Of a stretch of 64,000 nucleotides of DNA, positions 15,395 through 39,644 are shown one piece after another (the stretch's first letter is position 1; every line of letters starts with the position of its first letter). This DNA is from Alphaproteobacteria bacterium (lineage in GTDB: Bacteria > Pseudomonadota > Alphaproteobacteria > SP197), in NCBI GenBank assembly GCA_965116515.1, contig OZ220705.1, positions 3,888,331-3,952,330 of the forward strand. Reading direction: 5' to 3'. The translations under genes were made by a program, and so were the position numbers. The notes under the pieces are model-generated. The model was not told where the DNA came from. It saw only the letters and a list, made by a program, of their open reading frames with translations, and did no database searches.

Positions 15395-15400
15395 TCCGTT

Positions 15401-18021: not shown

Positions 18022-18256
18022 ATGGCCAGAATCCTGATCAGGGTATCCGTGACCGGCCGGAATTGCATCAGCGCTTCATGGCGTGATCACCGAGGACGAT
18101 CGGGCGATATGGCGGACGACCGAGCCCGAAGCCGTCACCAATCGGAGCTGTCCCGACCTGCAGATCGACAGGTCGGTGTCGCCGGGCGACGAGGAATTCG
18201 GGATCGCGACGGATGGTCGTATCGGATACGCTCTGCCGGAAATTCGGGTGCATTGC

Positions 18257-19423
18257 ATGAAGATCGAACGCATCATCGCCCGTCCGCTCAAGCGGGGATC
18301 GCCTCTCGACCGGGGAACGTCGCCACGTGCGTCCATCCCGCCCGGGGGCGATGGCGGCAACACGCTGTCGCGTTACCGCGAGTTTTCCGGACGGGCCCGC
18401 GACCCCGGCGGCAGCGGCCCGCCGGCGCTGTGCCTGGCAATCGCCAGCGATGGCACCTGGGGCATGGGTATCACCGATTTCTCCGGGGCAGTCGTGCCCC
18501 TGATCAACGAGTACTTCGCTCCCATGATCGAAGGCGGCAATGCACTGGCGACCGAACGGTTGTGGGACCTCATGTTCCGTCATGCCAGCGTTCCCGGGGT
18601 GGGCGGGATTGTGAGCTACGCGATCAGCGCCATTGATCTCGCCTTGTGGGATCTCAAGGGAAAGCTCCTGCAGCGTCCGGTCTATGAACTGCTGGGCGGA
18701 CCTGCGCACGCGGAGACCTTCTGCTATGCCACCGGCCACGACGTTGCATGGATGCTCGAATCGGGCTTCGAGGCGGTCAAACTGCCATGCTTGTTAGGTG
18801 AGGCTCAGGGCATCGTGGCCCTGGAGAGGATCGAGGAGAAGGTGGCGCACGCCAGGGAGATGATCGGTCCCGAACGTGAACTGATGCTCGACTGCTGGGT
18901 GGCCGGAGATGTCGAGTTCATGGTAAGGCTTGGCGAACGGTTGCGGCCCTACGGCCTGAAGTGGCTCGAGGACTATCTCTACCCCGAGGACTTCGCCTCC
19001 TACGAGGAACTGCGCCGGCGTCTTCCCTGGCAGACACTGGCTACCGGCGAACGCTGGTTCACCCATCTTCCCTTCGGCGAGGCAGCGGCGCGCCGCACCG
19101 TCGACATTTTCCAGCCCGACGTCCGCTGGGTCGGAGGTGTGACGGCCTGTATCAAGATCGGTCACATCGCCGAAGGCGCAGGCCTCCAGGTCGCCCTGCA
19201 CGGCGGTGTCAACGACTCGTTCGGCCAGCACCTGTGCCACGCCATGCCCAGCAACATGTGGGGTGAACTCTACATTGACTCGGCTCCCGGCATCCCTCTG
19301 GAGGAAGGCTGGCGTCCAACACCGGGCATGGCCATCCCGAAAGACGGTCGCCTCGTTCCACCGGCCACGCCCGGTTTCGGCATCGAACTCACCCGCGACG
19401 AGCTTGAGGCCATGACCGACTGA
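18257..19423 (+). CDS. Enolase-superfamily dehydratase, L-rhamnonate dehydratase (RhmD)-like
   Basis: Shared blocks with RhmD as I recall it: SAIDLALWDLKGKLLQRPVYELLGG, FCYATG, LMLDCW, LKWLEDY, QPDVRWVGGVT, PGFGIELTRD. ATG at 18257. The listed ORF begins at 18083. Confidence 0.7.
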   Translation: MKIERIIARPLKRGSPLDRGTSPRASIPPGGDGGNTLSRYREFSGRARDPGGSGPPALCLAIASDGTWGMGITDFSGAVVPLINEYFAPMIEGGNALATERLWDLMFRHASVPGVGGIVSYAISAIDLALWDLKGKLLQRPVYELLGGPAHAETFCYATGHDVAWMLESGFEAVKLPCLLGEAQGIVALERIEEKVAHAREMIGPERELMLDCWVAGDVEFMVRLGERLRPYGLKWLEDYLYPEDFASYEELRRRLPWQTLATGERWFTHLPFGEAAARRTVDIFQPDVRWVGGVTACIKIGHIAEGAGLQVALHGGVNDSFGQHLCHAMPSNMWGELYIDSAPGIPLEEGWRPTPGMAIPKDGRLVPPATPGFGIELTRDELEAMTD

Positions 19424-19602
19424 TCACCCCCCTGCAATTGATTTTCTGCACGATCCGGGAAACCCCACTTGACCCGGACAGGGGAATCTCTAGCGTGACA
19501 TCGACGTGTTGGCGCAGTCGCCCGTCTGTCCTTCTTCAGGGCTTTGGGTCGTTTCAGCACCGTCGAACTGCTTTTGCTCAACCCTGTTTGGAGACTGAAC
19601 AC

Positions 19603-19833
19603 ATGGCCACCACCGCTGACCGCATCAGGCAGATCATCGCCGATAATCTCGACGTTGGCCGCGATCCCGACTTCGACGCGAAACTCGTTGACTCCGGCGT
19701 GTCCTCGGTAGACTGCATCGCGTTTTTCAAGATTGTGAACGACGAGTTCAGCCTGGGACTGGTCGCCGAGGAGTGCCGGCAATTCGAGACACTGAATCAA
19801 TTGGTTCAGCACATCGATCAGAAGGCGGCATAA
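19603..19833 (+). CDS. Stand-alone acyl/peptidyl carrier protein (77 aa) with an atypical phosphopantetheine-site motif
   Basis: Four-helix-bundle-sized ORF MATTADRIRQIIADNLDVGRDPDFDAKLVDSGVSSVDCIAFFKIVNDEFSLGL. Candidate attachment Ser within DSGVSSVD (19690..19713). GGAGAC RBS. Sits directly upstream of a PPTase and a PKS. Confidence 0.65.
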   Translation: MATTADRIRQIIADNLDVGRDPDFDAKLVDSGVSSVDCIAFFKIVNDEFSLGLVAEECRQFETLNQLVQHIDQKAA

Positions 19834-19853
19834 CAGCACATCTGCACTGACGA

Positions 19854-19889
19854 CTGACAGGATGTCGCACCTGGCCCGTCGCTGGGTCG
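19854..19889 (+). terminator. Candidate intrinsic terminator hairpin after the carrier-protein gene (GTCGCACC...GGTGCGAC with a nested CCGTCG/CGACGG stem). No U-tract.
   Basis: Inverted repeat read directly 21 nt after the stop codon. Confidence 0.3.
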
Positions 19890-20340
19890 ACGGTGCGACA
19901 GGATGCCCGGGCCAGGGTTCCCGACCGAACAACGGGCTCCTCGCCATGGATTCTTGAGGGCCGGCCGGCCTTGGCGCCTTCCGGACTTTCGCCTGCGGCC
20001 AACCGGCACACGTGCCGCAAAGGGGTCACGGAAAAGCCGAACCGGCGTCGGCCGGGCATCCGCATCCACTCTGTCAGCAGGTGGCGACATGGCCGCCACG
20101 CCCAAAGCTGCTGCCTGTCCAACTCGACGAGTAGCCAGCCGGCACCGGAACTTCGAGTCGAACGGTGCCCATGGCGTCCGGTTGTGCGCCGGAACGCTTC
20201 CAGCGTCCTGGTACAGTCCGTGCCGATCACCCGGGCGGGGCTATCGAGGACCCTGGTCGACGCCGAGAGACGGGCCCCATTTGCGGATCTGAATGCGGCC
20301 GGTAGAGTCCCCGGAGGCATGGCGACCAAGGACTCCGACC

Positions 20341-21045
20341 ATGACCCTGACGGAGAACACATGGTGGACTCACTGGCGCGAGGTGGATGGCACGATCGTT
20401 CTCCATGTCGATCTGGCGCCGGATGCCGGGCGCGAGGCGCGGGCGGTCTCGTTGCTCGACGACAGCGAGAAAGCGCGCGGCCTCCGCTTCCGGTCCGTTT
20501 GTGCCCGCCGCGAGTTCGTCCTTTGCCGCGCGGCGCTTCGCGTCAGCCTCGCCGAGCGCCTGGGCTGCTCTGGTGAACGGCTTTCGTTCGGCTTCCTGGA
20601 ACACGGCAAGCCCTACGCGAGGCTCGCCGACCGGTCCGTGGACATCGCGTTCAACGTCAGTCACAGCGGCGGGCACGGCCTGATCGCGATCACCGACAAG
20701 GCGAGTGTCGGTGTCGACGTGGAGGAACGTGCGCCTCAGCGCGATCTCGACGGCATCGGCAGCCTGGTGTACGGCCCCAGGGAGCAGCGGTTCCTGGGGA
20801 ACGCTTCGGATCGGGAGAAAGTGCAGATCTTCTATCGCCTGTGGAGCATGAAGGAAGCGTTGATCAAGGCACTCGGCACCGGGTTTTCCCTGAACCCGTC
20901 GGGATTCGAGGTTCCCGGACCGATGCTGCGGGGAGAACGGTCCGGCATCTTCCGCTTCCCGCACCTGCCGTCACAGGCGTGGCGGGTCCTGGACCTGGGG
21001 GAGTCCCGATTCGCCGCCGCGCTTGCCTACCGGCTGTCGTCATGA
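20341..21045 (+). CDS. 4'-phosphopantetheinyl transferase, Sfp/EntD type
   Basis: Motifs GKPY, FNVSHSGGHGLIAI, VGVDVEE and WSMKEALIKALGTG. ATG at 20341 with an AAGGA RBS. The listed ORF starts at 20293. Confidence 0.85.
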   Translation: MTLTENTWWTHWREVDGTIVLHVDLAPDAGREARAVSLLDDSEKARGLRFRSVCARREFVLCRAALRVSLAERLGCSGERLSFGFLEHGKPYARLADRSVDIAFNVSHSGGHGLIAITDKASVGVDVEERAPQRDLDGIGSLVYGPREQRFLGNASDREKVQIFYRLWSMKEALIKALGTGFSLNPSGFEVPGPMLRGERSGIFRFPHLPSQAWRVLDLGESRFAAALAYRLSS

Positions 21046-21198
21046 CCCGGATCGATACCGGCGACGAACCGCCGGACAGCGAGTCCCGGTGCTAACCGCC
21101 GTGGCCGGAGTCCGCCCTTGTCCCGATGCGGTCGTTCGCCCAGCCTGCCGCCGCACGGCTTGCGGCCTGCGCGATGGCACATTGCACCGACAGGAATC

Positions 21199-22950
21199 AT
21201 GAGCGCCGCCGAAACGCGAGGCATCCGCTTCCAGCCCGATGAGACGCCGGCTCCGGCGCTCTCGCTCGGCCTGGGACTGCAGATCGTCATTCTCTCACTG
21301 GCTGGCATCATCCTGATCCCGACGATCGTGATGCGGGCCGGCGGAGCAAGCGAGAGCTATCTCTCCTGGGCGGTGTTCGCAACGGTCGCGATCTGCGGCG
21401 CTACAACGATCCTGCACGCAATCCGGATCTGGCGAATCGGCACCGGCCACCTGGTCGTTATGGGTCCCACCGGGGTCTACATCGCCGTCTGCATTACCGC
21501 GGTTGCCGAGGGCGGGCCAGCGCTTATGGCGACCCTGGTTGTTGTCTCGTCCGTGCTTCCTCTCGTGCTGGCCGCGCGGATGCCGCTGTTCCAGCGGCTG
21601 CTGACACCGACGCTTTCGGCAACGGTCCTGATGTTGATCCCCGTGACGGTAATGCCTGCCGTGTTCGGTCTCCTGACCGCAGTACCGGACGGCACGTCCG
21701 TTCTGGCATCGGCGCTGAGCGCCCTTGCGGTACTCCTCGTCATCGTAGGCATCGCTCTGAAGGTGACGGGCGCGCCACGCTTGTGGGCGCCGATCGTCGG
21801 GGTGGTCGCAGGCTCCGTTGTCGCCGCCGCGTTCGGCCTCTACGACACGGGCCGCGTCATCGAGGCGCCGTGGATCGGTTTTCCAACGGGCGAGTGGGCG
21901 GGCTTCGATCTCGAATTCGGCCCGGCATTCTGGGCGCTTCTGCCGACCTTTCTGCTCGTTACCGTCATTGCCTCGGTCCGGACCATCAGCGGCGCCGTGG
22001 CCATTCAGCGGGTTTCGTGGCGCCGGCCGCGGGCGGTGGATTTCCGCGCGGTACAGGGCGCGATCACAGTCGACGGTCTGGGCAACCTGCTCACCGGTCT
22101 CGCCGGTACGGTGCCAAACGCGTCCACGACCGTCGGCGCATCCGTAACCGAGTTGACGGGTGTCGCCAGCCGCCACGTTGGTATCGCCACCGGCGCAATC
22201 CTTGTCGTAATAGCGTTTCTGCCGAAGGCGCTCGCCGTCGTGCTGGCGATACCGGGACCGGTGGTCGCCGCCTATCTCGGGGTGTTGCTGGCCATGATCT
22301 TCATTGTCGGAATGAGTGTCGCGATGCGCGACGGGATCGACTACCGCAAGGGCCTAATCATTGGCGTCTCCTTCTGGGTCGGTATCGGTTTCCAGTACGA
22401 CATGATCTATCCCGAACATGTTTCCGAGATCGCCGGTGGACTCCTGCGAAACGGGGTCATGACAGGAGGCGCCGCGGCCATCCTGATGACACTTTTCGTG
22501 GAATTGACGAAACCACGCCGCAGCCGTCTCGTGGTTGCGTTCGAGACCTCCTCGGTGCCGAAGATCAGGAGTTTCCTCGGCATCTTCGCCGACCGGAACG
22601 GGTGGGGCGCGGCGATGGCCGCGCGGCTCGACGCTGCCTGCGAGGAGACGCTTCTCACTCTTCTCCACCAGGACGACGGGTCAGACGTGGCGAATCCGGG
22701 CCGGCGTCTGCGTCTGGCGGTCCACAGGGAAGGCACCGGCGCGGTCGTCGAATTCGTCGTGGCCGCACAGGACGTCAACCTCCAGGATCGCCTCGCGCTG
22801 ATCGGCGACGAGCCGGGCGCAACGCCTGCGGAGCGGGAGGTGTCGCTGCGACTCTTGCGCGGGTTGGCATCCTCTGTGCATCACCAGCAGTATCACGGTG
22901 TCGACATCGTGACCGTTCGCGTTGCGGCGCCGATGTCCGGCGCCGATTGA
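21199..22950 (+). CDS. NCS2-family (nucleobase:cation symporter-2 / xanthine-uracil permease-like) transporter with a ~150-aa C-terminal cytoplasmic extension of unknown function
   Basis: TM1 motif PALSLGLGLQIVIL. NCS2 signature region TTVGASVTELTGVASRHVGIATGAILVVIAFLPK, which I compare with UraA ...TGVASRYVG.... The C-terminal soluble part (FETSSVPKIRSF...VEFVVAAQD...) is not recognisable with confidence. Confidence 0.7.
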   Translation: MSAAETRGIRFQPDETPAPALSLGLGLQIVILSLAGIILIPTIVMRAGGASESYLSWAVFATVAICGATTILHAIRIWRIGTGHLVVMGPTGVYIAVCITAVAEGGPALMATLVVVSSVLPLVLAARMPLFQRLLTPTLSATVLMLIPVTVMPAVFGLLTAVPDGTSVLASALSALAVLLVIVGIALKVTGAPRLWAPIVGVVAGSVVAAAFGLYDTGRVIEAPWIGFPTGEWAGFDLEFGPAFWALLPTFLLVTVIASVRTISGAVAIQRVSWRRPRAVDFRAVQGAITVDGLGNLLTGLAGTVPNASTTVGASVTELTGVASRHVGIATGAILVVIAFLPKALAVVLAIPGPVVAAYLGVLLAMIFIVGMSVAMRDGIDYRKGLIIGVSFWVGIGFQYDMIYPEHVSEIAGGLLRNGVMTGGAAAILMTLFVELTKPRRSRLVVAFETSSVPKIRSFLGIFADRNGWGAAMAARLDAACEETLLTLLHQDDGSDVANPGRRLRLAVHREGTGAVVEFVVAAQDVNLQDRLALIGDEPGATPAEREVSLRLLRGLASSVHHQQYHGVDIVTVRVAAPMSGAD

Positions 22951-23040
22951 GAGCGGCATTGCGTCACGACTTTATTGCTGCCTGTTCACGTTTCGCTCGC
23001 GGTATGATCATGGCGGCCAGCTGACCAGGAGAGCAGTCCA

Positions 23041-26000
23041 ATGACGGATCCGGACAGGCCGGAAGGCCGCAAACAGGGAGTGTCCGCCGGCAGCGAGGCC
23101 ATGGCGATTGTAGGCATGGCCTGCCGTTTCCCCGGCGCAGACGACCTCTTCGCCTTCTGGCGCATGCTGGAAGAGGGGAAAAGCGGCGTGATCGAAGGGG
23201 TTCCCGGGTCCGGCGTTGGTCGCATCGGTGAACTGTTCGCTGAAGGCGAGGGGCGGGCCCCGGCCTGCAGGTTCGGCGCCTACCTCGACGAACTCGACCG
23301 GTTCGACGCCGCCTTCTTTCGCATCTCGCCGGTGGAAGCGCAGTTTCTCGACCCCCAGCAGCGAATGATGCTGGAAACCTGCTGGCGCGCACTGGAGGAT
23401 GCCGGCATCGACCCCGACAACCTGAAGGGCAGCCGCACCGGCGTCTTTGCGGGGATCAGCAACAACGAGTATCGCGGGCTGATCCTGGAAAGAACCCGGC
23501 CTGACGAACCCGCCGCGAGCCTTTACTCCGTCACCGGCACCTCGTTCAACACCGCGATCGGCCGGGTCTCTTTCGCTCTCGGCCTGGAGGGCCCGGCGCT
23601 CGCGCTCGATACGGCCTGCTCGTCCTCCCTGGTCGCGATACATCAGGCGGTGACCGCCCTGCAGCGAGACGAGGCGGACGTGGCACTGGCGGGCGGTGTG
23701 CATGCGATCCTCTCCGGTCGTCTGCTGGAGATGCGCGCCAATGCCGGCATGCTTTCGCCGGACGGCCGGTGCGCCACCTTCGATGCCGCTGCCAACGGCT
23801 ACGTGCGCGGTGAGGGCTGCGGGATCGTGGTGATCAAGCGTCTCTCCGATGCCGAGGCCGACGGCGACCGCATATGGGCGGTGATCCGGGGCACCGCGCT
23901 GAACCAGGATGGCGCCAGCCCGGGTCTGACCGTGCCAAGCGGTCCGGCCCAGGAAAAAGTCATGGAGTCCGCGCTGAAACAGGCTGGCCTCTCGCCTTCG
24001 GATGTGGACTACGTGGAGGCGCACGGGACAGGCACCGAGGTTGGCGACCCCATTGAAGCGCAGGCAACCGGCACGGCTTATGGCCACGGACGCGATCCCG
24101 AACGCCCGCTGCTGATCGGCTCGGTCAAGACCAATATCGGCCACCTTGAAGCGGCAGCCGGAGTCGCTGGGGTGATCAAGACGGTGCTGGCCATGAGGCG
24201 GGGCGTCATCCCCAGGCACCTCCATTTCCGGGATCCCAGTCCGGAAATCGACTGGGACCGTCTGCCCCTTCAGGTGACGGCAGAGCCCACCGAATGGCCA
24301 CGGTCTGCCGGTGCGCCGCCGCGCGCGGGGGTGAGCGGTTTCGGCTGGTCGGGGACCAACGCCCATGTGGTGCTGGAAGGGTATGGTGACCGGCACGACA
24401 CCGTCGCCGAAGATCCAGGGCGCTGGACCGACGGGCCGCCGGGGTGCATCGCCATCATTCAACCGTCCTCAATCGAAGGAGCGGCGCCGGTCGCGAAGAC
24501 GCTGGCCTCGCGCGGGTCGCGAATCCTGCCTCTCTCGGGCAGATCGAACGAAGCCCTGAGGGAACTCGCGGGATCGTACCTGTCCTGGCTCGATGAAGGC
24601 ACCCGCGCCGACAGTGCGGAAGCGCTCGCCGACATGGCCTGGACGGCCGCCGTCGGACGCAGTCATTTCGAGTGCCGGTCGGCAGTGGTGTTCCATGACG
24701 CCGGATCCCTGCGCGCCGCCCTGCAAGACCTCCGGGAAGCAGGCGGCACGCGGGTGCCGGCGGCGGCGAGGAAGGTGGCGTTCGCCTATACCGGACAGGC
24801 CAGCCAATGGCCTGGCATGGGCGAAGCGCTCTACGCAAGCGAGCCGGCGGTGCGCGCCGTGCTCGACCGCTGCGACGCGATCCTCGCCAAGGAACGGGAT
24901 GCGTCACTGCTGGACGTGATGTTCGGCCGACCGGGAGCCGCGGGTGACCTCGACGAGCCCCGGTGGAAACAGCCGGCGATCTATGCCCTTGAATGCGCGC
25001 TCACCGCGCTGTGGGACACTCTCGGCGTACGGCCGAATGTCGTGGTCGGACACAGTCTTGGCGAGATCGCGGCGGCGCAGGCTGCGGGCGTGTTCAGTCT
25101 GGAAGAAGGACTGCGCTTCGCCGCAGCCCGGGGCGGGCTGATCGGGGCGCTTCCCGGCGACGGCGCGATGGCCGCGGTCTTTGCGCCCGCTCCGCGTGTC
25201 GCCGAGGCACTGGACGAACACAATGCGGCTTCGGACGGCATTGGCCTTTGTATCGCGGTGGACAACGGCGCCCAGCAGGTGATCAGCGGTCCGGCGGTGG
25301 AGATCGACGCGATCCTGGGACGCCTGGAAGGTCAGGACATCCGGGCCGTGAAACTGCGCAGGAGCCCGGCCTACCACAGCGCGATGATCGACCCGGCCCT
25401 GGACGACCTGGAAGGCGCATTGGCCGGAACCGCGTTCGCTCCGCCTTCGATCCCGTTCGTCAGCAATCTGACCGGCCGCGCGCTGGAGGCCGGTGTCGCG
25501 CCGGACGCGTCCTATTGGCGGCGTCAGGTGCGCGAGCCGGTGGCCTTCCGTGCGTGCATCGAGACCCTGGCGGAATTTGGCGTGGACGCGATCATCGAGA
25601 TCGGTCCCCATGCCGTGTTGGGCCCGATGGCAACGATGGCATGGCCGGAATCCGCAGCCGAACCTCCTGTCGTGCTCTCAAGCCTGCGGCGGCCGGGCAA
25701 GGATGAGGAGCCGCCGCCGGCGGGTTCGGGCGGCGGCTTCATGGAGGCGGTTGCCGGCGCCTACGATGCGGGCCTGGCGCTCGACTTTCCGGGACTGTTC
25801 ACGGGCGAAACGCGCTGCCGCATCGCCCTGCCCGGCTATGCCTTCCAGCGAGAACGCTACTGGGTCGAGGGAACCAGGCGGCGGTCTCAGACCGGCCACC
25901 CCTTGCTGGGAACACGCCACGAGTCCGCGAGCGGCGAGGTCGCCTTCGACACCGAGGTCTTTCCCTCGGACCCGACGTGGCTCAACGACCATCGGGTGTT

Positions 26001-29000
26001 CGGCCGTCTGATTGCGCCCGGCGCGCTCTACGGCGCGATGGCCGCCACCAGCATCCGCGGGGATGGCGGAGGGGAAGCTGCGGTCGAGGACTTTCAGATA
26101 CAGAACGCCCTGGTCTTTCCCGAAGACGACGCGGAGGAGAGATCGAACGACAGGGGCCGGCGGATGCAGGTCCTGCTGGACGACGACGACCACGGTTCCC
26201 GCCGGATCCGCATTCTCAGCAGGGGCGACAGCGAGGACACGTGGACACTGCATGCAGAGGGCCGCATCCCGACAGACTCCTCAGGTTCGACGCGCCCACC
26301 ATCGCGCCTCGATGTCGAGGGAATGAAGGCCGGCCTCTTGCCGGTCGACCTCGCCGCTTACTACCGCTCCAAGGCGGCTGTCGGAATCGATCTCGGTCCC
26401 TCCTTCCGCACGCTGCAGGCGCTGTGGGCCCACGCCGGTGAAGCGGTCGCGGACGTGGTGCTCCCCGTCGAGCGAGAAGGTGATGCGCTCGACGTGCATC
26501 CGCTCGTGCTCGACGGCTGCTTCCAGGCCGTCGGCGCTGCGCGCAACGCCGGCAGCGACGGCGAGGACGTCACCTACCTCCCCTTCGCCTGGGAGCGACT
26601 GTGGCTGGCGGGCAGTCTGCCGGGTCGGCTGGTTTGTCATGTGAAGATGAGGGAAATTCCGCCGGGTCCGCAAGCGGATGCCGATGACTATGAGCCCGAG
26701 GTTCGGGCCGCCGACTTGTGGCTCTATGATCCGGACGGCGTACTGGTCGGCGAACTGGCCGGCTTTACGGTCAAACGCGCGACACGGGCAGCGTTGCTGG
26801 CTTCCGTGGAAGGAATTGACGATCTCATCTACGAGATCGTCTGGCGGGACAGCTCACTTGCACCCGGCATGTTGCCTGCGGATTTCCTGACCGGGCCGCG
26901 GGACATTGCGGCCGACACCCAACTCTTCAGCAACTACCTGGCGAACGAGGATGTGGGTGCGCAAAGCCGGGCCGCGCTGCTTGCGGATCTGGAGCAGTTG
27001 GCGCGCGCCTACGCCCTCCAGACTCTGGACAGGATCGGCTGGCAACGCATCGCCGGCGAACGCGTGGAGTCCGAGGCGTTGCGGGAGCATCTGGAGGTCG
27101 GCGACCACCACCGGCGACTGTTCCGCCGCATGCTGGACATGCTGGCTCAGGACGGGGTTCTGGAGGACCAGGGCGACAGCTTCGTCGTCAACGTTTCCTC
27201 CGGGGCACCTCTCCCGGGGGGACTGGCGAGCGACCCGGATGCCGTGGCTGGCGACATGGCGGCGCGGTACGCGCATGGCACAACCGAAATCGGCCTGTTT
27301 CGACGAAGCGCCGATGCCCTGGCCGATGTCCTGCAGGGACGCATGGATCCGTTGACATTGCTGTTCAGCAGCGGCGAACCGACAGCGGCCGACCTCTATC
27401 TGAAGGCGCCGGTGGCCCGCGCCGCGAACCGGATGCTGGCGGACGCTACGGCGGCATTGCTGCGAGCCCTGCCGGAAGGGCGCACGCTGCGTATACTGGA
27501 GATCGGGGCCGGCACCGGCTCGGCCACCGCGGCCATACTCCCGGAGTTTCCGGAAGGGCGCTACGAGTACACCTATACGGACATCTCGGCCGGCTTCTTC
27601 GCGGAGGCGGAATCGCGCTTCGGCGGTGCCGAGGCATCGATCAACTACCGGGTGCTGGATATCGAGAAGGACCCGGTGGAACAGGACTTCGACCGGCACG
27701 GCTACGACCTCGTGATCGCTTCCAATGTGCTGCACGCGACACGATATCTGAACGAGACGCTGGCGCACTGCCTCAAGGTCCTCGCCCCGTCGGGCCAGCT
27801 TGTCGCGCTGGAGAACCTGCGTGGCCAGGGATGGCTCGACCTGACCTTCGGGCAACTCGACGGCTGGTGGCGATTTGCCGACACGTATCGCCCACACCAT
27901 GCCCTCGCCACTCCGGCGGTGTGGCGCCAGGCATTGGGTGACGCCGGCTTCGGGGACATCGCGATCCTTGGCTTCGACGAGTCCGACCCGAACGCCAATC
28001 CGGACCGGGGGGTGATCCTTGCCCGGGGTCCGGCGGACGTGAGCGAGACGCCGGGTATCTGGGTCCTGGCCGCCGACCGCGGTGGCGTGGCGGCGGATCT
28101 CGCGGCGGATCTCGCGGCACACAACCAGACGGTGGTGCTTGCCGGACCGCAAGCGCCCCCCGGCGAACCAACGGAGGCCGCGGGCGTCGTCAAGACTCTC
28201 GTGGAGGCGGAGCGACGCGAGTCGTGGACATCCCTGCTCGAAGACCTGCCGGGCGACCTTGCAGGTGTCGTTCATCTTGCCGGGCTGGACGGCCATGGCG
28301 CGCAGGCGACGACCGCGGAACTGGCCGAGGACACCCGCCATGCGGCGGCGAGCGCGCTGGCACTGACCCAGGCGCTGGTGGACAGCGATCTGGCCCTGTC
28401 GAAGGGTCTCTGGTTCCTGACACGGGGCGCGCAGATCCTGGAGCGCGAGCGTGGCGGACAACTGACCGGCGCCGCTCTGTGGGGCTTCGGCAAGGTGGCG
28501 GCACGGGAAGCGCCCCAGCTGCAACCGAGAATGCTGGATCTCGATCCCGACGATGCGGTCCTGCCATCCGGCCTGGCGGACGAGTTCCTCCATCCCGATG
28601 CGGAAACACACATCGCCCGTCGATTCGGCCGCCGCCTTGGCGCGCGGCTGGTCCGCGCAGAAGCGGTCGCGGACCGGCTGATCCTGCCCGAGGAGCCCGG
28701 TTGGGAACTGAAGCCCGATGCCGGCGGCTCGCTCGACTCGATCGGGATCATGCAGGTGCCGCCGCTCAGGCTCGAACCCGGAGAGGTCCGCGCAGCGGTC
28801 GACGCCTTCGGGCTCAATTTCCGCGACGTTTTCATCGCCATCGGCGTCGTCGACGACTTCATGGGCGGGGAATTCTGCGGCCGCGTCCTCGAAGTCGGAG
28901 AGGGTGTTACCGGCGTCTCCGTGGGAGACCGCGTCGTCGGACTGACGTTCCGCAACTACGGCTCCGAGACCGTGACTCTGGAAAAGATGATCGTGCCCGC

Positions 29001-32000
29001 ACCACCGGGCTTCTCGGTCAGCGAGCTTGCGACATTTCCGACGGCGTTTGTTTCAGCCGCGCTTTCGTTCGAACTCTCGGGGCTGAAGGCGGGCGATCGC
29101 GTGCTCATCCACGCCGGGGCAGGCGGGGTAGGCCTTGCGGCCATCCAGTTGGCGCAGGCGGCGGGCGCGGAGGTCTTCGCCACGGCGAGTGCGCGCAAGC
29201 GGGACCATCTCCGATCGCTGGGCGTGACTCATGTGTTCGACAGCCGCACGACGGCCTTCGGCCAGGATATCCTGGAGGTGACAGACGGCGCCGGCGTCGA
29301 CATGGTGCTGAACAGCCTGACCGGCGAGGGCTTCATCGAGACCAGCCTGTCATGCCTCGCCCGAGGCGGGCGCTTCGTCGAAATGGGCCGGGTCGGCATC
29401 CTGAGCCACGACGAGATGGCGGCTGCGCGTCCGGACGTGTCCTATGCCATCCTCATGATCGACGCTCTCAAGGAGGACGAACCCGCACGCGCCGGTGACA
29501 TCCTGCGCGGCGTGATGGCGCGGCTTGCCGCCGGAGAGTTGACCCCGCTGCTCCACGCGCGATGGCCCGTGGCCGAAGTGGGAGCTGCGATGAAGTGCAT
29601 GCAGGGCGCCCGGCACATCGGCAAGATCGTCTTCACCAACTCGCCGCTCGCCAGGGGAGCCCTGCGGGGTGACCGGAGCTATCTCGTCACCGGTGGACTT
29701 GGCGGCATCGGCTGCGCGGTGGCGGAATGGCTGGCGGACCGCGGCGCCGGTTCCATCGTGCTCAACGGCCGACGGTCTCCCGACCCAGACGTCGAGCGGG
29801 TGATCGAGGCACTCCGCAAGAGGGGAGCCGAGGTGCGGGTGGAAATAGCCGATATGACCGATCCGCCCGCGATGGACGCCATGATGGCGCGGATCGACGA
29901 GGACCTGCCGCCACTCGCGGGCGTGATCCACAGCGTCGGTGTCCTTTCGGACGCCGCGATCGGCAATCAGAGCTGGGAGAACTTCGAAACGGTGCTCTGG
30001 CCCAAGATTCTGGGAGCATGGCATCTGCACAGGGCGACCGAAAATCGCGATCTCGACATGTTCGTTCTCTTCTCGAGTGTCGCGGGCGTTCTTGGTAATC
30101 CGGGCCAGGCCAACCATGCGGCGGCGAATGCGTTCCTCGACCAGCTCGCCGCGCACCGTCGCTCCCTCGGGCTTGCCGGCCAGGTCATTGCCTGGGGCGC
30201 CTGGTCGGAGATCGGGGAGGCTGAGGAACAGCGGGAGCGGATGTCCCGGCGCTCCGCGTCGGGCGGGCTCGAGTGGATCGTTCCGCAACAGGGCATGAGG
30301 GCCTTCGACCGGCTGGTGCGCGAGGACGCCACGGCGTCCGTGGTGCTCGCGCGTGACTGGACGGCGTTTGGAGAATCGCTCGAGAGCCGTCCGCCCCTGC
30401 TGGAGGACCTGTTGTCAGACGGTGCCGACGACGGCGCCGATGATTCCCTGGCCGACGATCTGTTCACCCGCCTGCAGGATGCGCCCGCGGCAATGCGCGA
30501 AGACGTGATGGCGTCGTTTATCCAGGGAGAAATCAAGGCTGTACTCAGGCTTCCTAGACCGCCGGCGCCCACGGTCGGGTTTTTCGACCTGGGCATGGAT
30601 TCCCTGATGGCGGTGGAGTTCCGCAATCGGCTCAACCGCGCCTTCGCAGGCGCTTACACGGCGTCCAATACGGTGGTGTTCGACTACCCCGACATCGCCG
30701 CACTCTCCGCCTTTCTCGCGGATGAGCTTGCCGGAGTCGTGGGCGCCGACGTGCCCGCCGCGCGAACCGTGCCGGCAGCCGTGCGCGATCACGACAACAC
30801 TTCGGACGGCATCGCCATTGTGGGCATGGCCTGCCGATTCCCGGGAGCACCAGATCTGCCGGCTTTCTGGCGTCACCTTGATTCCGGCTCGAGTGCCGTC
30901 ACCGGGGAGCGTCCCGAGACAGGCCCCTGGAGTGGCTACATCGACCATCTGCCCCCGCAATACGCGGAATTCGGCAACGCAGGCTTCATCGACGGGATCG
31001 ATCAGTTCGATGCCCGCTTCTTCGGTATCTCGCCGATCGAGGCACGGCTGGTCGATCCACAGCAACGGATGCTGCTGGAAACGACCTGGCAGGCCCTGGA
31101 GGACGCGGGGATCGACCCCGACCGGCTCAAGGGCAGTCGCACCGGGGTCTATGCCGGCATAGCGAGCAGCGAATACCGCGACCTGATGAGGAACGAGGAT
31201 TACGGTATCGGCTATCTCAGCACCGCTGCGAGCATGGCGGTTGGCCGGCTTTCGTTCCGCTTCGGTCTTGGCGGGCCCGCGATGCCCGTGGAACTCAACT
31301 GCGCTTCATCGCTGGTTGCGGTGCACCATGCCGTCACGGACCTGCGCCTGGGCACGGTGCACATGGCCTTGGCCGGCGGTGCGAGCGCCGTCCTGTCTGC
31401 GCCGGTGACGCGCGAAATGGCTGATCTGGGCCTTCTGTCGCGCGGCGGTGCATGCCGGACCTTCGATGCGAAAGCGGACGGGTTTGTGCGGGGCGAGGGC
31501 TGTGGCGTGATCATCCTCAAGCGTCTTGCAGACGCGGAGGCCGACGGCGATCGGATCTGGGCGGTGATCCGCGGCTCTGCGGTCAACCAGAACGGCGCGG
31601 CCGCCGGTGCAACGGTGCCGAACGGCCCGGCTCAGGAACGGGTGATCGAGCAGGCGCTCTCGCAGGCCGGCTTCGCCCCCGGCGAAGTGGACTACCTGGA
31701 GGCACACGGCGCCGGTTCGGCGTTTGGCGATCCCATCGAGGTACAGGCAGCGGCGGCGGTGTATGGAAGGGAGAGAGCCAGCGACCGCCCGCTACTGATC
31801 GGTTCGGTAAAGACCAGTATCGGACATCTCGAGTCGGCGGCCGGCATCGCCGGACTGATGAAGACCGTGCTGGCCATGAACCGGGGCGCCATTCCCCGCC
31901 ACCTGAACTTCCGGACCCCGAATCCGCTCATCGAGTGGGACCGGTTGCCAGTGCGGGTGACGGAGGAAGCGACCGCCTGGCCATGCGATACCGCCCGACC

Positions 32001-33252
32001 ACCGAGGGCCGGGGTGAGCGCCTTCGGAATCTCGGGAGTCAACGCCCATGTCGTGTTGGAGGGATATGCTGCCGAGGGCCCTGTGCCCGTGGGGCCGGCG
32101 CTGCCGACCGCAGTCTCCCTGCCGAAACCGATTGCCGCTCAACCCCAGGAGGAGATTGCGCTCGCAGCGCGCACCATGCGTCTCTTGCCGCTTTCGGCCA
32201 AGTCGGATGACGCGCTGAGAGCGCTCGCCGAGCGGTACCTTGGATGGCTTGACGAGCGGTCCGACGAACTGGCGCCGGGAGAAGCTGCATCCGGTTCCCT
32301 GCTGTCCGACATGGCATGGACGGCCGGAGTGGGAAGGAGCCATCTTGCACATCGCGCCGGCCTCGTGTTCCGTGACGCCGCGGCGCTGCGGGCGGGTTTG
32401 AAGGCTCTGGTGGCATCCCGGGACCTCCCGGAACCCGGGACACCTGCAAAGGTTGCATTCGCCTACCCGGAGGAGTTGGGCAACTGGACTGCCCTGGCGG
32501 GGACACTCTACGAGATCGAACCGGTGGTCCGGGCGGTACTCGACCGCTGTGAGGCCGCCATGCACGACCGGTGGAACGAGTCGCTGCTCGAAAGACTGTT
32601 CCGCCGAAGCGAACCGGTTGATCCGGCATGGGCGCGGCCCATGGTCTGTTCCCTGGCATGTGCGCTCACGGCGCTCTGGTCGAGCATCGGCATCCGGCCA
32701 GGCGTGGCGATCGGCTGGGGAGCCGGCGAACTGGCGGCAGCCCAGGCCGCCGGCGTCTTCGATCTGGAGCAGGGGCTCACGCTTGCGACGGAACCGGACG
32801 ATGCACCCGAAGTCATCATGCCATCCCCGCCATCGATCAGCCTCGTCAGCAGCGCCACGGGGCGGCTGGTCGATCCAGGCGACATGCCGGACGGAGCTCG
32901 CTGGAGTCGTCAGACGCACGTCCGGGCGGCCCCGGAGCGTTGCGCTGGCACTTTGGCGGAACTGGACGTCGACGCGATGATCGAGATCGGCCCTGGAACC
33001 GAATTCGGATCGATGCTCGCCCGTGCCTCGACGGCGGCTGCCGACAGCGGCGTGGCGGTTTCGATCGAGACCCTGCGGCGATCAGGCGGAGACGAGGACG
33101 GCGGCTTCATCGCTGCGGTCGCCGCAGCCTACGAGGCGGGCCTTGCGGTGTCCTTCGAGGGTCTCTTTGCGGGCGAGGCCAGGCGCCGGATCGCGCTTCC
33201 CGGCTACCCGTTCCAGCGCCGAAGCCACTGGCTCGTGTCGCGCGAACGGTAG
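23041..33252 (+). CDS. Type I polyketide synthase, single 3403-aa ORF. Domain order: KS-AT-DH-cMT-(KR structural subdomain)-ER-KR-ACP-KS-AT0 (degenerate, truncated AT). No TE or R domain.
   Basis: KS1 DTACSSSLVA, EAHGTGT, NIGHLE. AT1 GHSLGE. DH HPLLGTRHESASGEVAFDTEVFPSDPTWLNDHRV. cMT LEIGAGTG. ER HAGAGGVG. KR TGGLGGIG. ACP LGMDSLMAVE. KS2 ELNCASSLVA, EAHGAGS, SIGHLE. Second AT-like region has GWGAGE in place of GHSLGE. Confidence 0.9.
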   Translation: MTDPDRPEGRKQGVSAGSEAMAIVGMACRFPGADDLFAFWRMLEEGKSGVIEGVPGSGVGRIGELFAEGEGRAPACRFGAYLDELDRFDAAFFRISPVEAQFLDPQQRMMLETCWRALEDAGIDPDNLKGSRTGVFAGISNNEYRGLILERTRPDEPAASLYSVTGTSFNTAIGRVSFALGLEGPALALDTACSSSLVAIHQAVTALQRDEADVALAGGVHAILSGRLLEMRANAGMLSPDGRCATFDAAANGYVRGEGCGIVVIKRLSDAEADGDRIWAVIRGTALNQDGASPGLTVPSGPAQEKVMESALKQAGLSPSDVDYVEAHGTGTEVGDPIEAQATGTAYGHGRDPERPLLIGSVKTNIGHLEAAAGVAGVIKTVLAMRRGVIPRHLHFRDPSPEIDWDRLPLQVTAEPTEWPRSAGAPPRAGVSGFGWSGTNAHVVLEGYGDRHDTVAEDPGRWTDGPPGCIAIIQPSSIEGAAPVAKTLASRGSRILPLSGRSNEALRELAGSYLSWLDEGTRADSAEALADMAWTAAVGRSHFECRSAVVFHDAGSLRAALQDLREAGGTRVPAAARKVAFAYTGQASQWPGMGEALYASEPAVRAVLDRCDAILAKERDASLLDVMFGRPGAAGDLDEPRWKQPAIYALECALTALWDTLGVRPNVVVGHSLGEIAAAQAAGVFSLEEGLRFAAARGGLIGALPGDGAMAAVFAPAPRVAEALDEHNAASDGIGLCIAVDNGAQQVISGPAVEIDAILGRLEGQDIRAVKLRRSPAYHSAMIDPALDDLEGALAGTAFAPPSIPFVSNLTGRALEAGVAPDASYWRRQVREPVAFRACIETLAEFGVDAIIEIGPHAVLGPMATMAWPESAAEPPVVLSSLRRPGKDEEPPPAGSGGGFMEAVAGAYDAGLALDFPGLFTGETRCRIALPGYAFQRERYWVEGTRRRSQTGHPLLGTRHESASGEVAFDTEVFPSDPTWLNDHRVFGRLIAPGALYGAMAATSIRGDGGGEAAVEDFQIQNALVFPEDDAEERSNDRGRRMQVLLDDDDHGSRRIRILSRGDSEDTWTLHAEGRIPTDSSGSTRPPSRLDVEGMKAGLLPVDLAAYYRSKAAVGIDLGPSFRTLQALWAHAGEAVADVVLPVEREGDALDVHPLVLDGCFQAVGAARNAGSDGEDVTYLPFAWERLWLAGSLPGRLVCHVKMREIPPGPQADADDYEPEVRAADLWLYDPDGVLVGELAGFTVKRATRAALLASVEGIDDLIYEIVWRDSSLAPGMLPADFLTGPRDIAADTQLFSNYLANEDVGAQSRAALLADLEQLARAYALQTLDRIGWQRIAGERVESEALREHLEVGDHHRRLFRRMLDMLAQDGVLEDQGDSFVVNVSSGAPLPGGLASDPDAVAGDMAARYAHGTTEIGLFRRSADALADVLQGRMDPLTLLFSSGEPTAADLYLKAPVARAANRMLADATAALLRALPEGRTLRILEIGAGTGSATAAILPEFPEGRYEYTYTDISAGFFAEAESRFGGAEASINYRVLDIEKDPVEQDFDRHGYDLVIASNVLHATRYLNETLAHCLKVLAPSGQLVALENLRGQGWLDLTFGQLDGWWRFADTYRPHHALATPAVWRQALGDAGFGDIAILGFDESDPNANPDRGVILARGPADVSETPGIWVLAADRGGVAADLAADLAAHNQTVVLAGPQAPPGEPTEAAGVVKTLVEAERRESWTSLLEDLPGDLAGVVHLAGLDGHGAQATTAELAEDTRHAAASALALTQALVDSDLALSKGLWFLTRGAQILERERGGQLTGAALWGFGKVAAREAPQLQPRMLDLDPDDAVLPSGLADEFLHPDAETHIARRFGRRLGARLVRAEAVADRLILPEEPGWELKPDAGGSLDSIGIMQVPPLRLEPGEVRAAVDAFGLNFRDVFIAIGVVDDFMGGEFCGRVLEVGEGVTGVSVGDRVVGLTFRNYGSETVTLEKMIVPAPPGFSVSELATFPTAFVSAALSFELSGLKAGDRVLIHAGAGGVGLAAIQLAQAAGAEVFATASARKRDHLRSLGVTHVFDSRTTAFGQDILEVTDGAGVDMVLNSLTGEGFIETSLSCLARGGRFVEMGRVGILSHDEMAAARPDVSYAILMIDALKEDEPARAGDILRGVMARLAAGELTPLLHARWPVAEVGAAMKCMQGARHIGKIVFTNSPLARGALRGDRSYLVTGGLGGIGCAVAEWLADRGAGSIVLNGRRSPDPDVERVIEALRKRGAEVRVEIADMTDPPAMDAMMARIDEDLPPLAGVIHSVGVLSDAAIGNQSWENFETVLWPKILGAWHLHRATENRDLDMFVLFSSVAGVLGNPGQANHAAANAFLDQLAAHRRSLGLAGQVIAWGAWSEIGEAEEQRERMSRRSASGGLEWIVPQQGMRAFDRLVREDATASVVLARDWTAFGESLESRPPLLEDLLSDGADDGADDSLADDLFTRLQDAPAAMREDVMASFIQGEIKAVLRLPRPPAPTVGFFDLGMDSLMAVEFRNRLNRAFAGAYTASNTVVFDYPDIAALSAFLADELAGVVGADVPAARTVPAAVRDHDNTSDGIAIVGMACRFPGAPDLPAFWRHLDSGSSAVTGERPETGPWSGYIDHLPPQYAEFGNAGFIDGIDQFDARFFGISPIEARLVDPQQRMLLETTWQALEDAGIDPDRLKGSRTGVYAGIASSEYRDLMRNEDYGIGYLSTAASMAVGRLSFRFGLGGPAMPVELNCASSLVAVHHAVTDLRLGTVHMALAGGASAVLSAPVTREMADLGLLSRGGACRTFDAKADGFVRGEGCGVIILKRLADAEADGDRIWAVIRGSAVNQNGAAAGATVPNGPAQERVIEQALSQAGFAPGEVDYLEAHGAGSAFGDPIEVQAAAAVYGRERASDRPLLIGSVKTSIGHLESAAGIAGLMKTVLAMNRGAIPRHLNFRTPNPLIEWDRLPVRVTEEATAWPCDTARPPRAGVSAFGISGVNAHVVLEGYAAEGPVPVGPALPTAVSLPKPIAAQPQEEIALAARTMRLLPLSAKSDDALRALAERYLGWLDERSDELAPGEAASGSLLSDMAWTAGVGRSHLAHRAGLVFRDAAALRAGLKALVASRDLPEPGTPAKVAFAYPEELGNWTALAGTLYEIEPVVRAVLDRCEAAMHDRWNESLLERLFRRSEPVDPAWARPMVCSLACALTALWSSIGIRPGVAIGWGAGELAAAQAAGVFDLEQGLTLATEPDDAPEVIMPSPPSISLVSSATGRLVDPGDMPDGARWSRQTHVRAAPERCAGTLAELDVDAMIEIGPGTEFGSMLARASTAAADSGVAVSIETLRRSGGDEDGGFIAAVAAAYEAGLAVSFEGLFAGEARRRIALPGYPFQRRSHWLVSRER
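23095..24384 (+). other. PKS domain KS1 (ketosynthase), active-site Cys codon at 23617..23619
   Basis: AIVGMACRFPGA ... DTACSSSLVA ... EAHGTGT ... NIGHLEAAAG ... NAHVVLEGY. Confidence 0.85.
24772..25870 (+). other. PKS domain AT1 (acyltransferase) plus post-AT linker. Active Ser codon at 25054..25056.
   Basis: FAYTGQASQWPGMG ... GHSLGEIAAAQAAG ... RRSPAYHSAMI (unusual specificity motif) ... RIALPGYAFQRERYWV. Confidence 0.8.
25897..26790 (+). other. PKS domain DH (dehydratase)
   Basis: HPLLG...P catalytic-His motif, then LDGCFQ and the hot-dog fold region. Confidence 0.7.
26880..27990 (+). other. PKS domain cMT (C-methyltransferase). Motif I LEIGAGTG at 27496..27519.
   Basis: LRILEIGAGTGSATAAILPEF ... 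YDLVIASNVLHAT. Confidence 0.75.
28050..28620 (+). other. PKS KR N-terminal structural (pseudo-KR) subdomain
   Basis: Rossmann-like region GIWVLAADRGGVAADLAADLAAH ... GVVHLAGLD preceding the ER, as in fully reducing modules. Confidence 0.5.
28680..29640 (+). other. PKS domain ER (enoylreductase, MDR family)
   Basis: LEPGEVRAAVDAFGLNFRDV ... DRVLIHAGAGGVGLAAIQLAQAAGAEVFATAS. Confidence 0.8.
29677..30250 (+). other. PKS domain KR (ketoreductase catalytic subdomain) with His in place of the catalytic Tyr (NHAAAN; His codon CAT at 30115..30117)
   Basis: SYLVTGGLGGIG ... FSSVAGVLGNPGQANHAAANAFLDQLA. Confidence 0.75.
30460..30700 (+). other. PKS domain ACP. Phosphopantetheine Ser codon at 30601..30603.
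   Basis: FFDLGMDSLMAVEFRNRLN. Confidence 0.8.
30808..32067 (+). other. PKS domain KS2 (second ketosynthase). Cys codon at 31300..31302.
   Basis: GIAIVGMACRFPGAP ... VELNCASSLVA ... EAHGAGSAFGDP ... SIGHLESAAG ... NAHVVLEGY. Confidence 0.8.
32449..33252 (+). other. PKS AT0: degenerate, shortened acyltransferase-like remnant (GWGAGE; Ala codon 32722..32724 where the catalytic Ser is expected). It is followed directly by the stop codon.
   Basis: KVAFAYPEELGNWT in place of FAYTGQASQWPGMG. IGWGAGELAAAQAAG. Only about 160 aa lie between this motif and the RRIALPGYPFQRRSHWL linker-like end, compared with about 260 aa in AT1. Confidence 0.7.
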
Positions 33253-34199
33253 GCGGGACCACGAGCGCGGGTTTCGTCTTCCGGATCCCCGTGCGCGGCC
33301 TTTCGGAAGCCAAGTCCTGTCAGGTACTCGCGCACCATCGCCGCGCATTGCGCGGGTTGTTCCAGTTGCAGAAAGTGTGACGCCTGTGGCACGAAGTCGT
33401 AGTCGACAGCCGACGCATGACTGAGGTCGAAGGTGGGGAGATACGCGTATGGCAGCGTCGGATCGGCGCCGATGACCTTGGTCGGGCAGATCAGAATCGA
33501 CAGATCCAGCAACGGCGAAAAGCTCCTCACGTACTCCGCGATCTGGGCTTCGTAGTCGCGAGGACAGCGCAGTTCGTACCCGTTTCCGTCGGCGCTCTCG
33601 CGAAGAGTCGACCGTGCCATGAGATCGCGCACGCCCGGTACAACCCGGGCAAATCCGGGAACGATGGCCAGGACTTCCGCATACTGCTCTTCGGACTTGA
33701 ACCGCTCCGTCCGGCGCCGGGTCATTGCGGCCGTCCTCTCCGCCGCCTCGATGAACTCCAGTTCGCTTGAGGCGGGTTTGCAGAGCGGCGGATCGAACAG
33801 GACCAGCGCGGAATAGGCGTCATTGAATGACAGCAGGGCGACAAGCGTCGACAGTGAATGAAACACTCCGACCGTCGTCTTTTCGCCGTACTCCCGGACG
33901 ATGGCATCGAGAATGATGTCATGATCGAAAATCAGTGTCGGAATGTTGTGGTCCCGCTGGGAACCGACCTCGTTCCAGCCGTGGTTCCTGAGGTCATAGA
34001 CCATCAGGTCGAAGTCATCGGCGAGCAACGACCAGAACGGATAGTAAAGGTCGGCCGCGAGACCGTTACCGTGGGTCAGAACAAGCCGTGGACCGGACGG
34101 GTTGCCGTATCGCCGCACGGTGGTCACGGTGCTCGTGTCGATCCGGACGTCGAACGTGGCAAGAGGCTCGGGTATCGTCCACATCGTTGCTTCCGTCAT
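33204..34199 (-). CDS. Alpha/beta-hydrolase-fold protein (candidate thioesterase/hydrolase). Convergent with the PKS gene and overlapping its 3' end by 49 bp.
   Basis: 332 aa from MTEATMWTIPEPL. Fold-typical HGNGLAADLYYPFW and a nucleophile-elbow-like VGVFHSLSTL that is non-canonical. Confidence 0.55.
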   Translation of the reverse strand: MTEATMWTIPEPLATFDVRIDTSTVTTVRRYGNPSGPRLVLTHGNGLAADLYYPFWSLLADDFDLMVYDLRNHGWNEVGSQRDHNIPTLIFDHDIILDAIVREYGEKTTVGVFHSLSTLVALLSFNDAYSALVLFDPPLCKPASSELEFIEAAERTAAMTRRRTERFKSEEQYAEVLAIVPGFARVVPGVRDLMARSTLRESADGNGYELRCPRDYEAQIAEYVRSFSPLLDLSILICPTKVIGADPTLPYAYLPTFDLSHASAVDYDFVPQASHFLQLEQPAQCAAMVREYLTGLGFRKAAHGDPEDETRARGPAYRSRDTSQWLRRWNG

Positions 34200-34707
34200 G
34201 ACGCTTGTGTCCGCTTTCCTCTCTATGCGGTGCCTGCAACGGGACACGGCATGACTTCAATGGTCGCCCACGTCACCGCAACGTTCACGGAATATTCGGA
34301 CGAATTGGTTTCCCCTGAATACAGGAACCTGGGGACGGTTGTCCGCTGTGTGGTGGTTCCCCGCGTGTCCGAAATCCGGGGAAACTTCCTTTCATCGGTC
34401 TTGAGATCAATGTTTCATAGTTTGCGTCCTGATACCACACACGAGACAGCCATCCCTTCCAGCCGTCCCGTGCTTGCCGGCCTCGGCGGAGACATCGCAC
34501 TCCACCGACGGGCCAAGCCAGGCAGCGAACGAACGACCATGATCGGTGGCGCATGGACCGGGCCAGGCTGCGGCCCCTCTGCATCTTCGGCAAACGCAGC
34601 GGGTTCGTTGTCGGGCAGACAACGTCACCGACACCGTGGTTGCCCTGGACCCGGGTATGGTAGAACGATCTCCTGGCACTCCGGGGGTCCGGGAGAGGGA
34701 TGACACC

Positions 34708-39642: not shown

Positions 39643-39644
39643 GG

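Follow-up and report, generated by a model that had tools for sequence, protein, structure and literature searches.

Which domain is joined to the C terminus of a nucleobase-permease-like protein encoded inside a polyketide synthase (PKS) operon, and what might it do there? The question is raised by a 64,000-nucleotide stretch of an alphaproteobacterial genome (contig OZ220705.1, positions 3,888,331 to 3,952,330 of the forward strand; the window in the following), in which an earlier note had seen a soluble extension on an NCS2-type permease that it could not assign. An assignment can be made: the gene, of supE type, encodes a secondary transporter of NCS2/SLC23 fold with a conserved C-terminal domain of the RsbW/SpoIIAB/UsfX type, i.e., an anti-sigma-factor fold (HATPase_c_2, GHKL) with degenerate ATP motifs. 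Both peptides quoted in the note lie inside the enclosing open reading frame (ORF; 21118..22950, plus strand). Translation probably starts at the ATG at position 21199, with AGGA eight nucleotides upstream, and the resulting 583-residue product matches the public gene call. This product shares 98% identity, over all 583 residues, with SupE (UniProt A4U8R2) of the Aplysina aerophoba symbiont clone pAPKS18, the window hence holds the published sup (sponge symbiont ubiquitous PKS) cluster. SupE of that cluster has the same neighbors as the window gene, i.e., genes for an acyl carrier protein (ACP), a 4'-phosphopantetheinyl transferase (PPTase) and a SupA-type KS-AT-DH-MT-ER-KR-ACP PKS; we place both permeases in one gene family and draw no distinction between them at the sequence level. 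Relatives of SupE carry the name 'hypothetical protein' at NCBI.

The extension following the last transmembrane (TM) helix is a genuine, folded domain of 145 residues, close to the 150 or so given previously. Hydropathy and the AlphaFold model place the final TM helix at residues 419–437, followed by the sequence KPRRSR and then by the cytoplasmic domain. The interval first assigned to the extension, 22480–22950, contains it, with a start that falls about 11 codons inside TM14. A Pfam search with residues 439–583 of the window copy gave no match of its own, and the sole NCBIfam matches of the window tail were far below threshold (E-values of 0.03 and 0.1). We built an AlphaFold model of the tail from an alignment of 26 sequences. 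The model folds confidently (predicted local distance difference test, pLDDT, 83.9; predicted template modeling score, pTM, 0.77), the tail is hence no linker or low-complexity sequence, an outcome that the note had named as refuting. Its topology is β-α-α-β-β-α-α-β-β, the GHKL (Bergerat) α/β fold of the RsbW/SpoIIAB subtype. In a Foldseek search of the tail against the PDB, anti-sigma factors (Mycobacterium tuberculosis UsfX, Bacillus subtilis RsbW, SpoIIAB) took all of the first 19 places, the best match being 8ih8_C with E = 2e-7. The top-scoring structural relative, UsfX, has 25% sequence identity to the tail.

Sequence comparisons agree with this fold where they detect any homology. PF13581 (HATPase_c_2) matched weakly in 8 of the 26 tail relatives, with a best E-value of 1.4e-6. 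The tail profile aligned with a canonical HATPase_c_2 profile, made from kinases encoded beside SupE homologues, over 137 columns (92% probability, E = 5.5e-7). Homology was visible solely with this canonical-kinase profile and, weakly, with RsbW; hhalign of the tail alignment against one SpoIIAB sequence saw none, and a PDB profile search with the tail alignment returned chance matches alone, e.g., GAL4 and histone H3. As judged from predicted structure and alignments together, the tail is a conserved pseudokinase domain of the RsbW/SpoIIAB type.

The term pseudokinase refers to the three ATP-binding boxes. In active members of the fold, the N-box Asn binds Mg-ATP, the D-x-G of the G1 box binds adenine and the G-G-L-G-I of the G2 box binds the phosphates. 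We located the corresponding positions with three independent alignments, i.e., to RsbW, to one canonical neighbor and to the canonical profile, and all three agreed; the RsbW sequence used was confirmed for residues 13–140 against PDB chain 6m36_A. Residues were counted over 144 homologues, in which the motifs of the N box (E-x-x-x-N), the G1 box (D-x-G-x-G) and the G2 box (G-x-x-G-x-G) were not found. From the N box, the pair of glutamates is kept (E482 and E483, 141 of 144 each), and the position of the Asn is taken by T487 (Thr in 117, Ser in 14, Ala in 6). The former G1 segment has nearly invariant N527, D530 and R531, the former G2 segment nearly invariant S549, R551 and R554. Since the N-box Asn and all G1 and G2 glycines are lost, canonical Mg-ATP binding is not expected. 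That the tail nevertheless acts as a Ser/Thr kinase or ATPase in the manner of RsbW or SpoIIAB, which its GHKL fold and the retained N-box glutamates could suggest, is highly improbable and largely excluded: essentially none of the 144 homologues has kept the N-box Asn, the Asp and Gly of G1 or the glycines of G2, and loci with partner-switching genes encode a separate canonical kinase. In these kinases encoded next to SupE-family permeases, all three boxes are intact.

Polar residues are kept at the old active-site positions (E482, E483, N527, D530, R531, S549, R551 and H562). The tail could therefore be read as a small-molecule sensor that reuses the nucleotide pocket, e.g., for an acyl-CoA, a nucleotide second messenger or the transported solute, and gates transport allosterically. 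The clustering of nearly invariant polar residues at the former N, G1 and G2 box positions speaks for such a sensor; we nonetheless think it improbable, as this set of motifs has no precedent in ligand binding and the lid region is disordered and variable.

The fusion of permease and tail is widespread. The architecture of about 580 residues is kept in 3,705 homologues, the best 120 of which reach down to 61% identity, and also in a diverse set of members with as little as about 32% identity. When the tail alone served as query, an exhaustive search gave 511 clusters at 50% identity. In complete tail-bearing proteins, the tail is always C-terminal and the permease 556–599 residues long. Members come from Alpha- and Gammaproteobacteria, Acidobacteriota, Nitrospirota, Latescibacterota, Binatia, Dadabacteria, Spirochaetia and others. 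Among 26 diverse members, the tail has a mean pairwise identity of 39.6%, compared with 38.8% in the membrane core, and E482, E483, R551 and H562 are invariant. Candidates for stand-alone tails (matches of 100–270 residues) were rejected, because each either begins at a Met inside TM14 or has a frameshifted end. An artefactual fusion of two genes, which the note had named as a possible refutation, is hence scarcely credible with a continuous fusion in 511 clusters and 3,705 homologues and no convincing stand-alone copies. The same numbers describe a large family, rather than the PKS-operon oddity for which the fusion had been taken; only about a quarter of species-level loci are PKS-linked.

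The membrane core belongs to the xanthine/uracil permease family (NCS2/NAT, TC 2.A.40), as the note had recognized. PF00860 (Xan_ur_permease) matches residues 25–398 with 121.1 bits (cut-off 27). Hydropathy and the AlphaFold model show 14 helices in a 7+7 inverted-repeat (UraA/SLC23) fold, and the full-length model (pLDDT 83.2, pTM 0.78) has the short β-strands in TM3 (residues 88–90) and TM10 (residues 307–309) that mark the UraA fold. The best Foldseek matches of the core were UapA (2e-15), then SVCT1 and UraA, with SLC26 proteins in a second tier. PF00860, the 14-TM 7+7 fold and the TM3/TM10 strands are thus shared with the NCS2/NAT proteins UapA, UraA, XanQ/PbuX and SVCT1, whose characterized members lack a 145-residue cytoplasmic domain.

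Substrate-binding residues differ as well. The NCBIfam pbuX/ncs2 models align across residues 22–433 and miss their cut-offs (TIGR00801 ncs2, 129 versus 291.8 bits; TIGR03173 pbuX, 162 versus 414; NF037981, 39.7 versus 40), because the TM8 Glu and the TM10 signature residues are replaced. The substrate-binding Glu of UapA (E356) in TM8 is Arg261 in the permease, and this position is Arg in 111, Glu in 16 and Lys in 9 of the 144 homologues. In TM10, a phmmer alignment pairs Q408-N409-N410-G411 of UapA with V312-G313-A314-S315; of the NAT signature [Q/E/P]-N-x-G-x-x-x-x-T-[R/K/G] (Q/E-N-x-G in characterized members), the closing T-G alone is retained. E318 in TM10 is kept in 120 of 144 homologues; combinations of residues 261 and 318 (R-E in 102 sequences, E-E in 11, E-A in 5) are uninformative on co-variation. 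With the nucleobase-binding residues of UapA, UraA and XanQ not conserved, the earlier designation as a nucleobase-type permease describes the fold only. To judge from sequence, the core is an NCS2 protein in fold and no recognizable nucleobase carrier. An anionic or other small polar substrate is possible, which is a guess.

We surveyed the genomic context of 80 species-level loci and added individual look-ups. In the swf fosmid, the SupE homologue ORF17 lies between two 'anti-anti-sigma' genes (PMC3908369). In our survey, a gene for a STAS protein (anti-sigma-factor antagonist) stands beside the permease in at least four separate branches, e.g., 144 bp away in a SwfA/SwfB cluster (L008) and 48 bp away in a locus without PKS (L094). 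Two of five distant homologues that were looked up have an immediately adjacent STAS gene. We roughly estimate that chance alone would put a STAS gene at a given flanking position in well under 1% of loci. Nine species-level loci in two separate branches (L076, L082, L083; L024, L029, L034, L062, L065, L067) from metagenome-assembled genomes (MAGs) of Nitrospirales and unclassified bacteria combine the permease with STAS, a REC-PP2C phosphatase and a canonical RsbW-like kinase. The order in L076 is permease, kinase, STAS, REC-PP2C (9908–17754); Pfam also finds a HAMP histidine kinase in L076 and L062, and L076 encodes a periplasmic binding protein. The permease-linked STAS proteins form one subfamily with 30–36% identity and a phosphorylatable SSAG motif, which lies within the longer pattern [VL][ST][YF][IM]SSAG[LI]R.

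Our preferred explanation, to which we give about an even chance, is that a STAS-type partner docks onto the tail, which perhaps also serves as a dimerization element, and that the tail regulates transport. The tail would work as a protein–protein interaction module and not as an enzyme. Its likeliest partner would be a single-domain STAS protein, whose phosphorylation state would be set by the separate kinase and the PP2C phosphatase. Once bound to the tail, STAS would then turn transport on or off or adjust it; alternatively, the transporter would serve to sequester STAS. Because RsbW and SpoIIAB proteins are dimers, the tail may also hold two protomers of the elevator-type transporter together. 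The permease would most likely move a small polar or anionic solute tied to the sup lipid pathway, and not a nucleobase. A regulatory role, which the note had allowed for, is in any case plausible.

Dimerization could also be all that the tail provides. A purely structural tail would dimerize or stabilize the elevator transporter, or plug it from the cytoplasmic face in an autoinhibitory manner, with no external partner. RsbW and SpoIIAB are obligate dimers, and NCS2 and SLC26 transporters work as dimers. Moreover, the tail is as conserved as the core, most loci (all Sup-linked ones included) have no STAS neighbor, and the pTM of the full-length model suggests a defined placement of the tail. 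We regard a purely structural role as unlikely, though, since it leaves unexplained why STAS genes and partner-switch modules recur independently next to the permease and why the charged residues E482, E483, R551 and H562 are strongly conserved in the former active-site region. Alternatively, the tail might be a membrane-tethered anti-sigma factor, i.e., part of a 'transceptor' that frees a sigma factor depending on transport or occupancy state and so controls transcription of the PKS operon. Its closest structural relatives are indeed true anti-sigma factors, UsfX above all, and UsfX reportedly does not phosphorylate its antagonists. However, no sigma-factor gene is a conserved neighbor (the lone candidate is a weak Sigma70_r4/MarR match 4 kb away in L005), none was found in the window, and the recurring contexts hold STAS, PP2C and a separate kinase and no sigma factor; a tethered anti-sigma factor thus seems quite improbable. 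In descending likelihood, we rank the alternatives as structural or autoinhibitory tail, tethered anti-sigma factor, ligand pocket, active kinase, and PKS docking (see below) or fusion artefact.

Several observations weigh against a STAS-docking tail. PF13581 did not match the window copy itself. Conservation and model confidence are lowest in the loop equivalent to the ATP lid, the element that touches STAS in the complexes of SpoIIAB and RsbW, with pLDDT below 50 at domain residues 99–104 in the tail model and at residues 524–551 in the full-length model. The conserved polar set E482, E483, N527, D530, R551 and H562 might be a non-canonical ligand site. Genes for STAS, PP2C, RsbW or sigma factors were not found in the 64-kb window by a narrow HMM from permease-linked STAS proteins, gene calls and Pfam over most of its length, with small ORFs at 52–64 kb only partly scanned for STAS. 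The 10-kb flanks of the 22 Sup-linked loci, this window included, contain no STAS gene, and no PP2C or sigma-factor gene was found in these loci; about 60% of loci have unrelated housekeeping neighbors only. A reciprocal test started from 80 metagenome loci with the STAS subfamily. The canonical kinase was present in 50 of them, a different NCS2 subfamily in only 4, and a SupE-type tail within 6 kb in none, where the ±6-kb flank misses arrangements like that of L024 with its 6.7-kb spacing. The STAS subfamily is hence not dedicated to the permease.

The different NCS2 subfamily (L143 1634–3424(−), L157 6281–8110(+), L158 2–991(+), L174 1–1743(−)) comes from environmental metagenomes and adjoins genes for STAS and a canonical HATPase_c_2 kinase; in L157, the genes for kinase, STAS and permease directly follow one another. 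The TM10 motif of this subfamily, SSSNVG, is more canonical, and a C-terminal extension of its own comprises about 130 residues without Pfam match. This extension aligns collinearly, if weakly, with the SupE tail (61%, E = 8e-5) and with the canonical kinases (68%, E = 5e-5). The finding is suggestive, not proof. A wider and more tentative proposal, which we consider possible rather than probable, is that the SupE family and probably this second subfamily are membrane nodes of partner-switching signaling. The dead RsbW-like tail would bind a dedicated STAS protein in its phosphorylated or unphosphorylated form, so that a cascade from histidine kinase to REC-PP2C would directly gate solute flux, in sponge symbionts coupled to the Sup/Swf lipid synthases.

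The PKS-operon setting that the note had described holds for the window (Table 1). The genes for ACP, PPTase, permease and PKS lie on one strand, and no terminator-like hairpin was found across 19300–23200. The gaps around the permease gene are 153 nt and 90 nt, the PKS starting 90 nt past the permease stop, and both genes have separate ribosome-binding sites, that of the PKS being AGGAG. ACP, PPTase, permease and SupA PKS probably share one transcript. The hydrolase ORF overlaps the last 49 nt of the PKS ORF (33204–33252).

Table 1. Coordinates of the permease, its parts and the neighboring genes in the window.
Feature	Position	Strand	Basis or remark
Free-standing acyl carrier protein gene, 76 aa, upstream of permease	19603..19833	+	
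Sfp-type 4'-phosphopantetheinyl transferase gene	20293..21045	+	public call starts 20341
supE-type permease gene	21199..22950	+	583 aa plus stop
Membrane core, about residues 20–437	21256..22509	+	PF00860, AlphaFold, Foldseek
Arg261 in TM8, at substrate-binding Glu position of UapA (E356)	21979..21981	+	phmmer alignment
TM10 region P306–G321 (PNASTTVGASVTELTG), degenerate counterpart of NAT signature	22114..22161	+	alignment to UapA
Cytoplasmic C-terminal domain, residues 439–583, RsbW/SpoIIAB/UsfX-like GHKL fold	22513..22947	+	
N-box remnant C481-E-E-T-L-L-T-L488	22639..22662	+	alignments
G1-box (DxGxG) replacement A523-Q-D-V-N-L-Q-D-R531, no Gly	22765..22791	+	alignments
G2-box (GGLG) replacement E547-V-S-L-R-L-L-R554, no Gly	22837..22860	+	alignments
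SupA-type PKS gene, 3,403 aa, KS-AT-DH-MT-ER-KR-ACP-KS-(partial AT)	23041..33252	+	
α/β-hydrolase gene, convergent with PKS	33204..34247	−	

Some further features of the window may be recorded. The C-terminal part of the PKS (32400–33252) has a second KS after the ACP, then a partial AT that covers positions 11–111 of 319 of the Acyl_transf_1 profile; in this second AT, the GHSxG site reads G-W-G-A-G, and it looks inactive or truncated. An MR_MLE gene (18083–19423) lies just upstream of the ACP gene. When the gene coordinates of L001, which encodes an identical permease, are mapped to the window, the offset differs by 4 nt upstream of about 20.3 kb (6881–8631 in L001, about 18083–19833 in the window), which suggests a small indel in the ACP–PPTase intergenic region. 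The 2-kb bin 38001–40000 has an AT skew of +0.228, compared with absolute values of at most 0.11 elsewhere; it contains no tandem repeat and, by synteny with L089, apparently holds the end of a MurJ gene and ABC-transporter permease genes.

SupE orthology with an adjacent SupA-type, single-module methylating PKS, as in the window, recurs across several phyla: a Sup-type PKS lies within 10 kb of the permease in 22 of about 86 loci, mostly directly adjacent and on either side. The 80 surveyed loci (L009–L088) have permease identities of 56–93% and stem from MAGs of at least 10 phyla or classes typical of sponge microbiomes, with Dadabacteria among the labels. The PKS-linked permeases group in clades of their own, and their MAG labels comprise Alpha- and Gammaproteobacteria, Bryobacterales, Latescibacterota, Binatia, Nitrospira sp., Spirochaetia and Thermodesulfobacteriota. 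That these clades cross phyla at such identities indicates that the sup cluster has spread laterally among sponge symbionts. The separate clades, and the position of the permease directly beside a SupA-type PKS in at least 17 loci, are what would be expected if the tail served the PKS/ACP machinery specifically, for export coupling or docking, a possibility raised in the earlier note. The same tail with the same motifs occurs, however, in the roughly 75% of loci that lack a PKS within 10 kb, which argues against any PKS-specific coupling device; we consider such a role, like the fusion artefact, the remotest of the alternatives and largely excluded.

Apart from the PKS and partner-switch contexts, the loci showed no single conserved neighborhood that would point to a substrate. 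Other neighbors encode cytochromes c, DsbA, Era/YchF GTPases, malate synthase, ATP synthase and thiamine functions, and an AMP-binding ligase cluster occurs in 17 loci at variable distances. In Latescibacterota and related Sup loci (L003, L018, L019, L060), the genes downstream of the permease encode a sulfatase, a PhyH-family dioxygenase and an MR_MLE member of the enolase superfamily. Tandem SupE-family permease genes are present in L071 (9914–13463) and L073 (7897–11734).

The supE gene and its PKS setting have been on record since 2007, when Fieseler et al. reportedly described the sup cluster of clone pAPKS18. We found no description of the C-terminal domain of SupE, or of an NCS2–RsbW fusion, in the searchable literature. 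RsbW, SpoIIAB and UsfX, and likewise SiaB (HATPase_c_2), are free-standing, whereas the SupE tail is fused to a transporter and has lost its N, G1 and G2 boxes. Partner-switching systems with outputs other than sigma factors include HptB-HsbR-HsbA and SiaABCD. Loci of the L076 type carry a similar set, i.e., histidine kinase, REC-PP2C, STAS and RsbW-like kinase, a link that is genomic only. We know of no partner-switching system with a transporter-fused pseudokinase as a node. A parallel in design is found in the sister family of SulP/SLC26-STAS transporters, which likewise combine a 7+7 elevator-type core with a cytoplasmic α/β domain from a partner-switching system, placed at the same position. 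These have a SulP core and a STAS domain, whereas the SupE family has an NCS2 core (PF00860 in place of Sulfate_transp) and the opposite, RsbW-like partner. By this analogy of design, the SupE tail may be viewed as the mirror image of the SulP/SLC26-STAS arrangement. In the swf cluster, the SupE-like ORF17 bears the label 'permease' alone (Della Sala et al., 2013; PMC3908369).

In abundance, the sup and swf clusters rank with the foremost biosynthetic loci of sponge microbiomes; so far, SupE has been listed in them simply as a 'permease'. Its missing nucleobase-binding residues warn against annotation as a xanthine/uracil permease. Even without the STAS link, the tail is a widespread, unannotated and conserved module, and as an anti-sigma-type pseudokinase domain it would offer a concrete handle on sup regulation via a STAS partner. 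The protein would be a counterpart of the long-discussed SLC26-STAS design and one of few examples in which part of a partner switch is joined to a secondary transporter. Should the STAS link prove true, it would add a new type of output to partner-switching systems, and if SupE-family permeases are indeed membrane nodes of such signaling, SulP and NCS2 transporters would each have captured one partner of the SpoIIAA/SpoIIAB switch.

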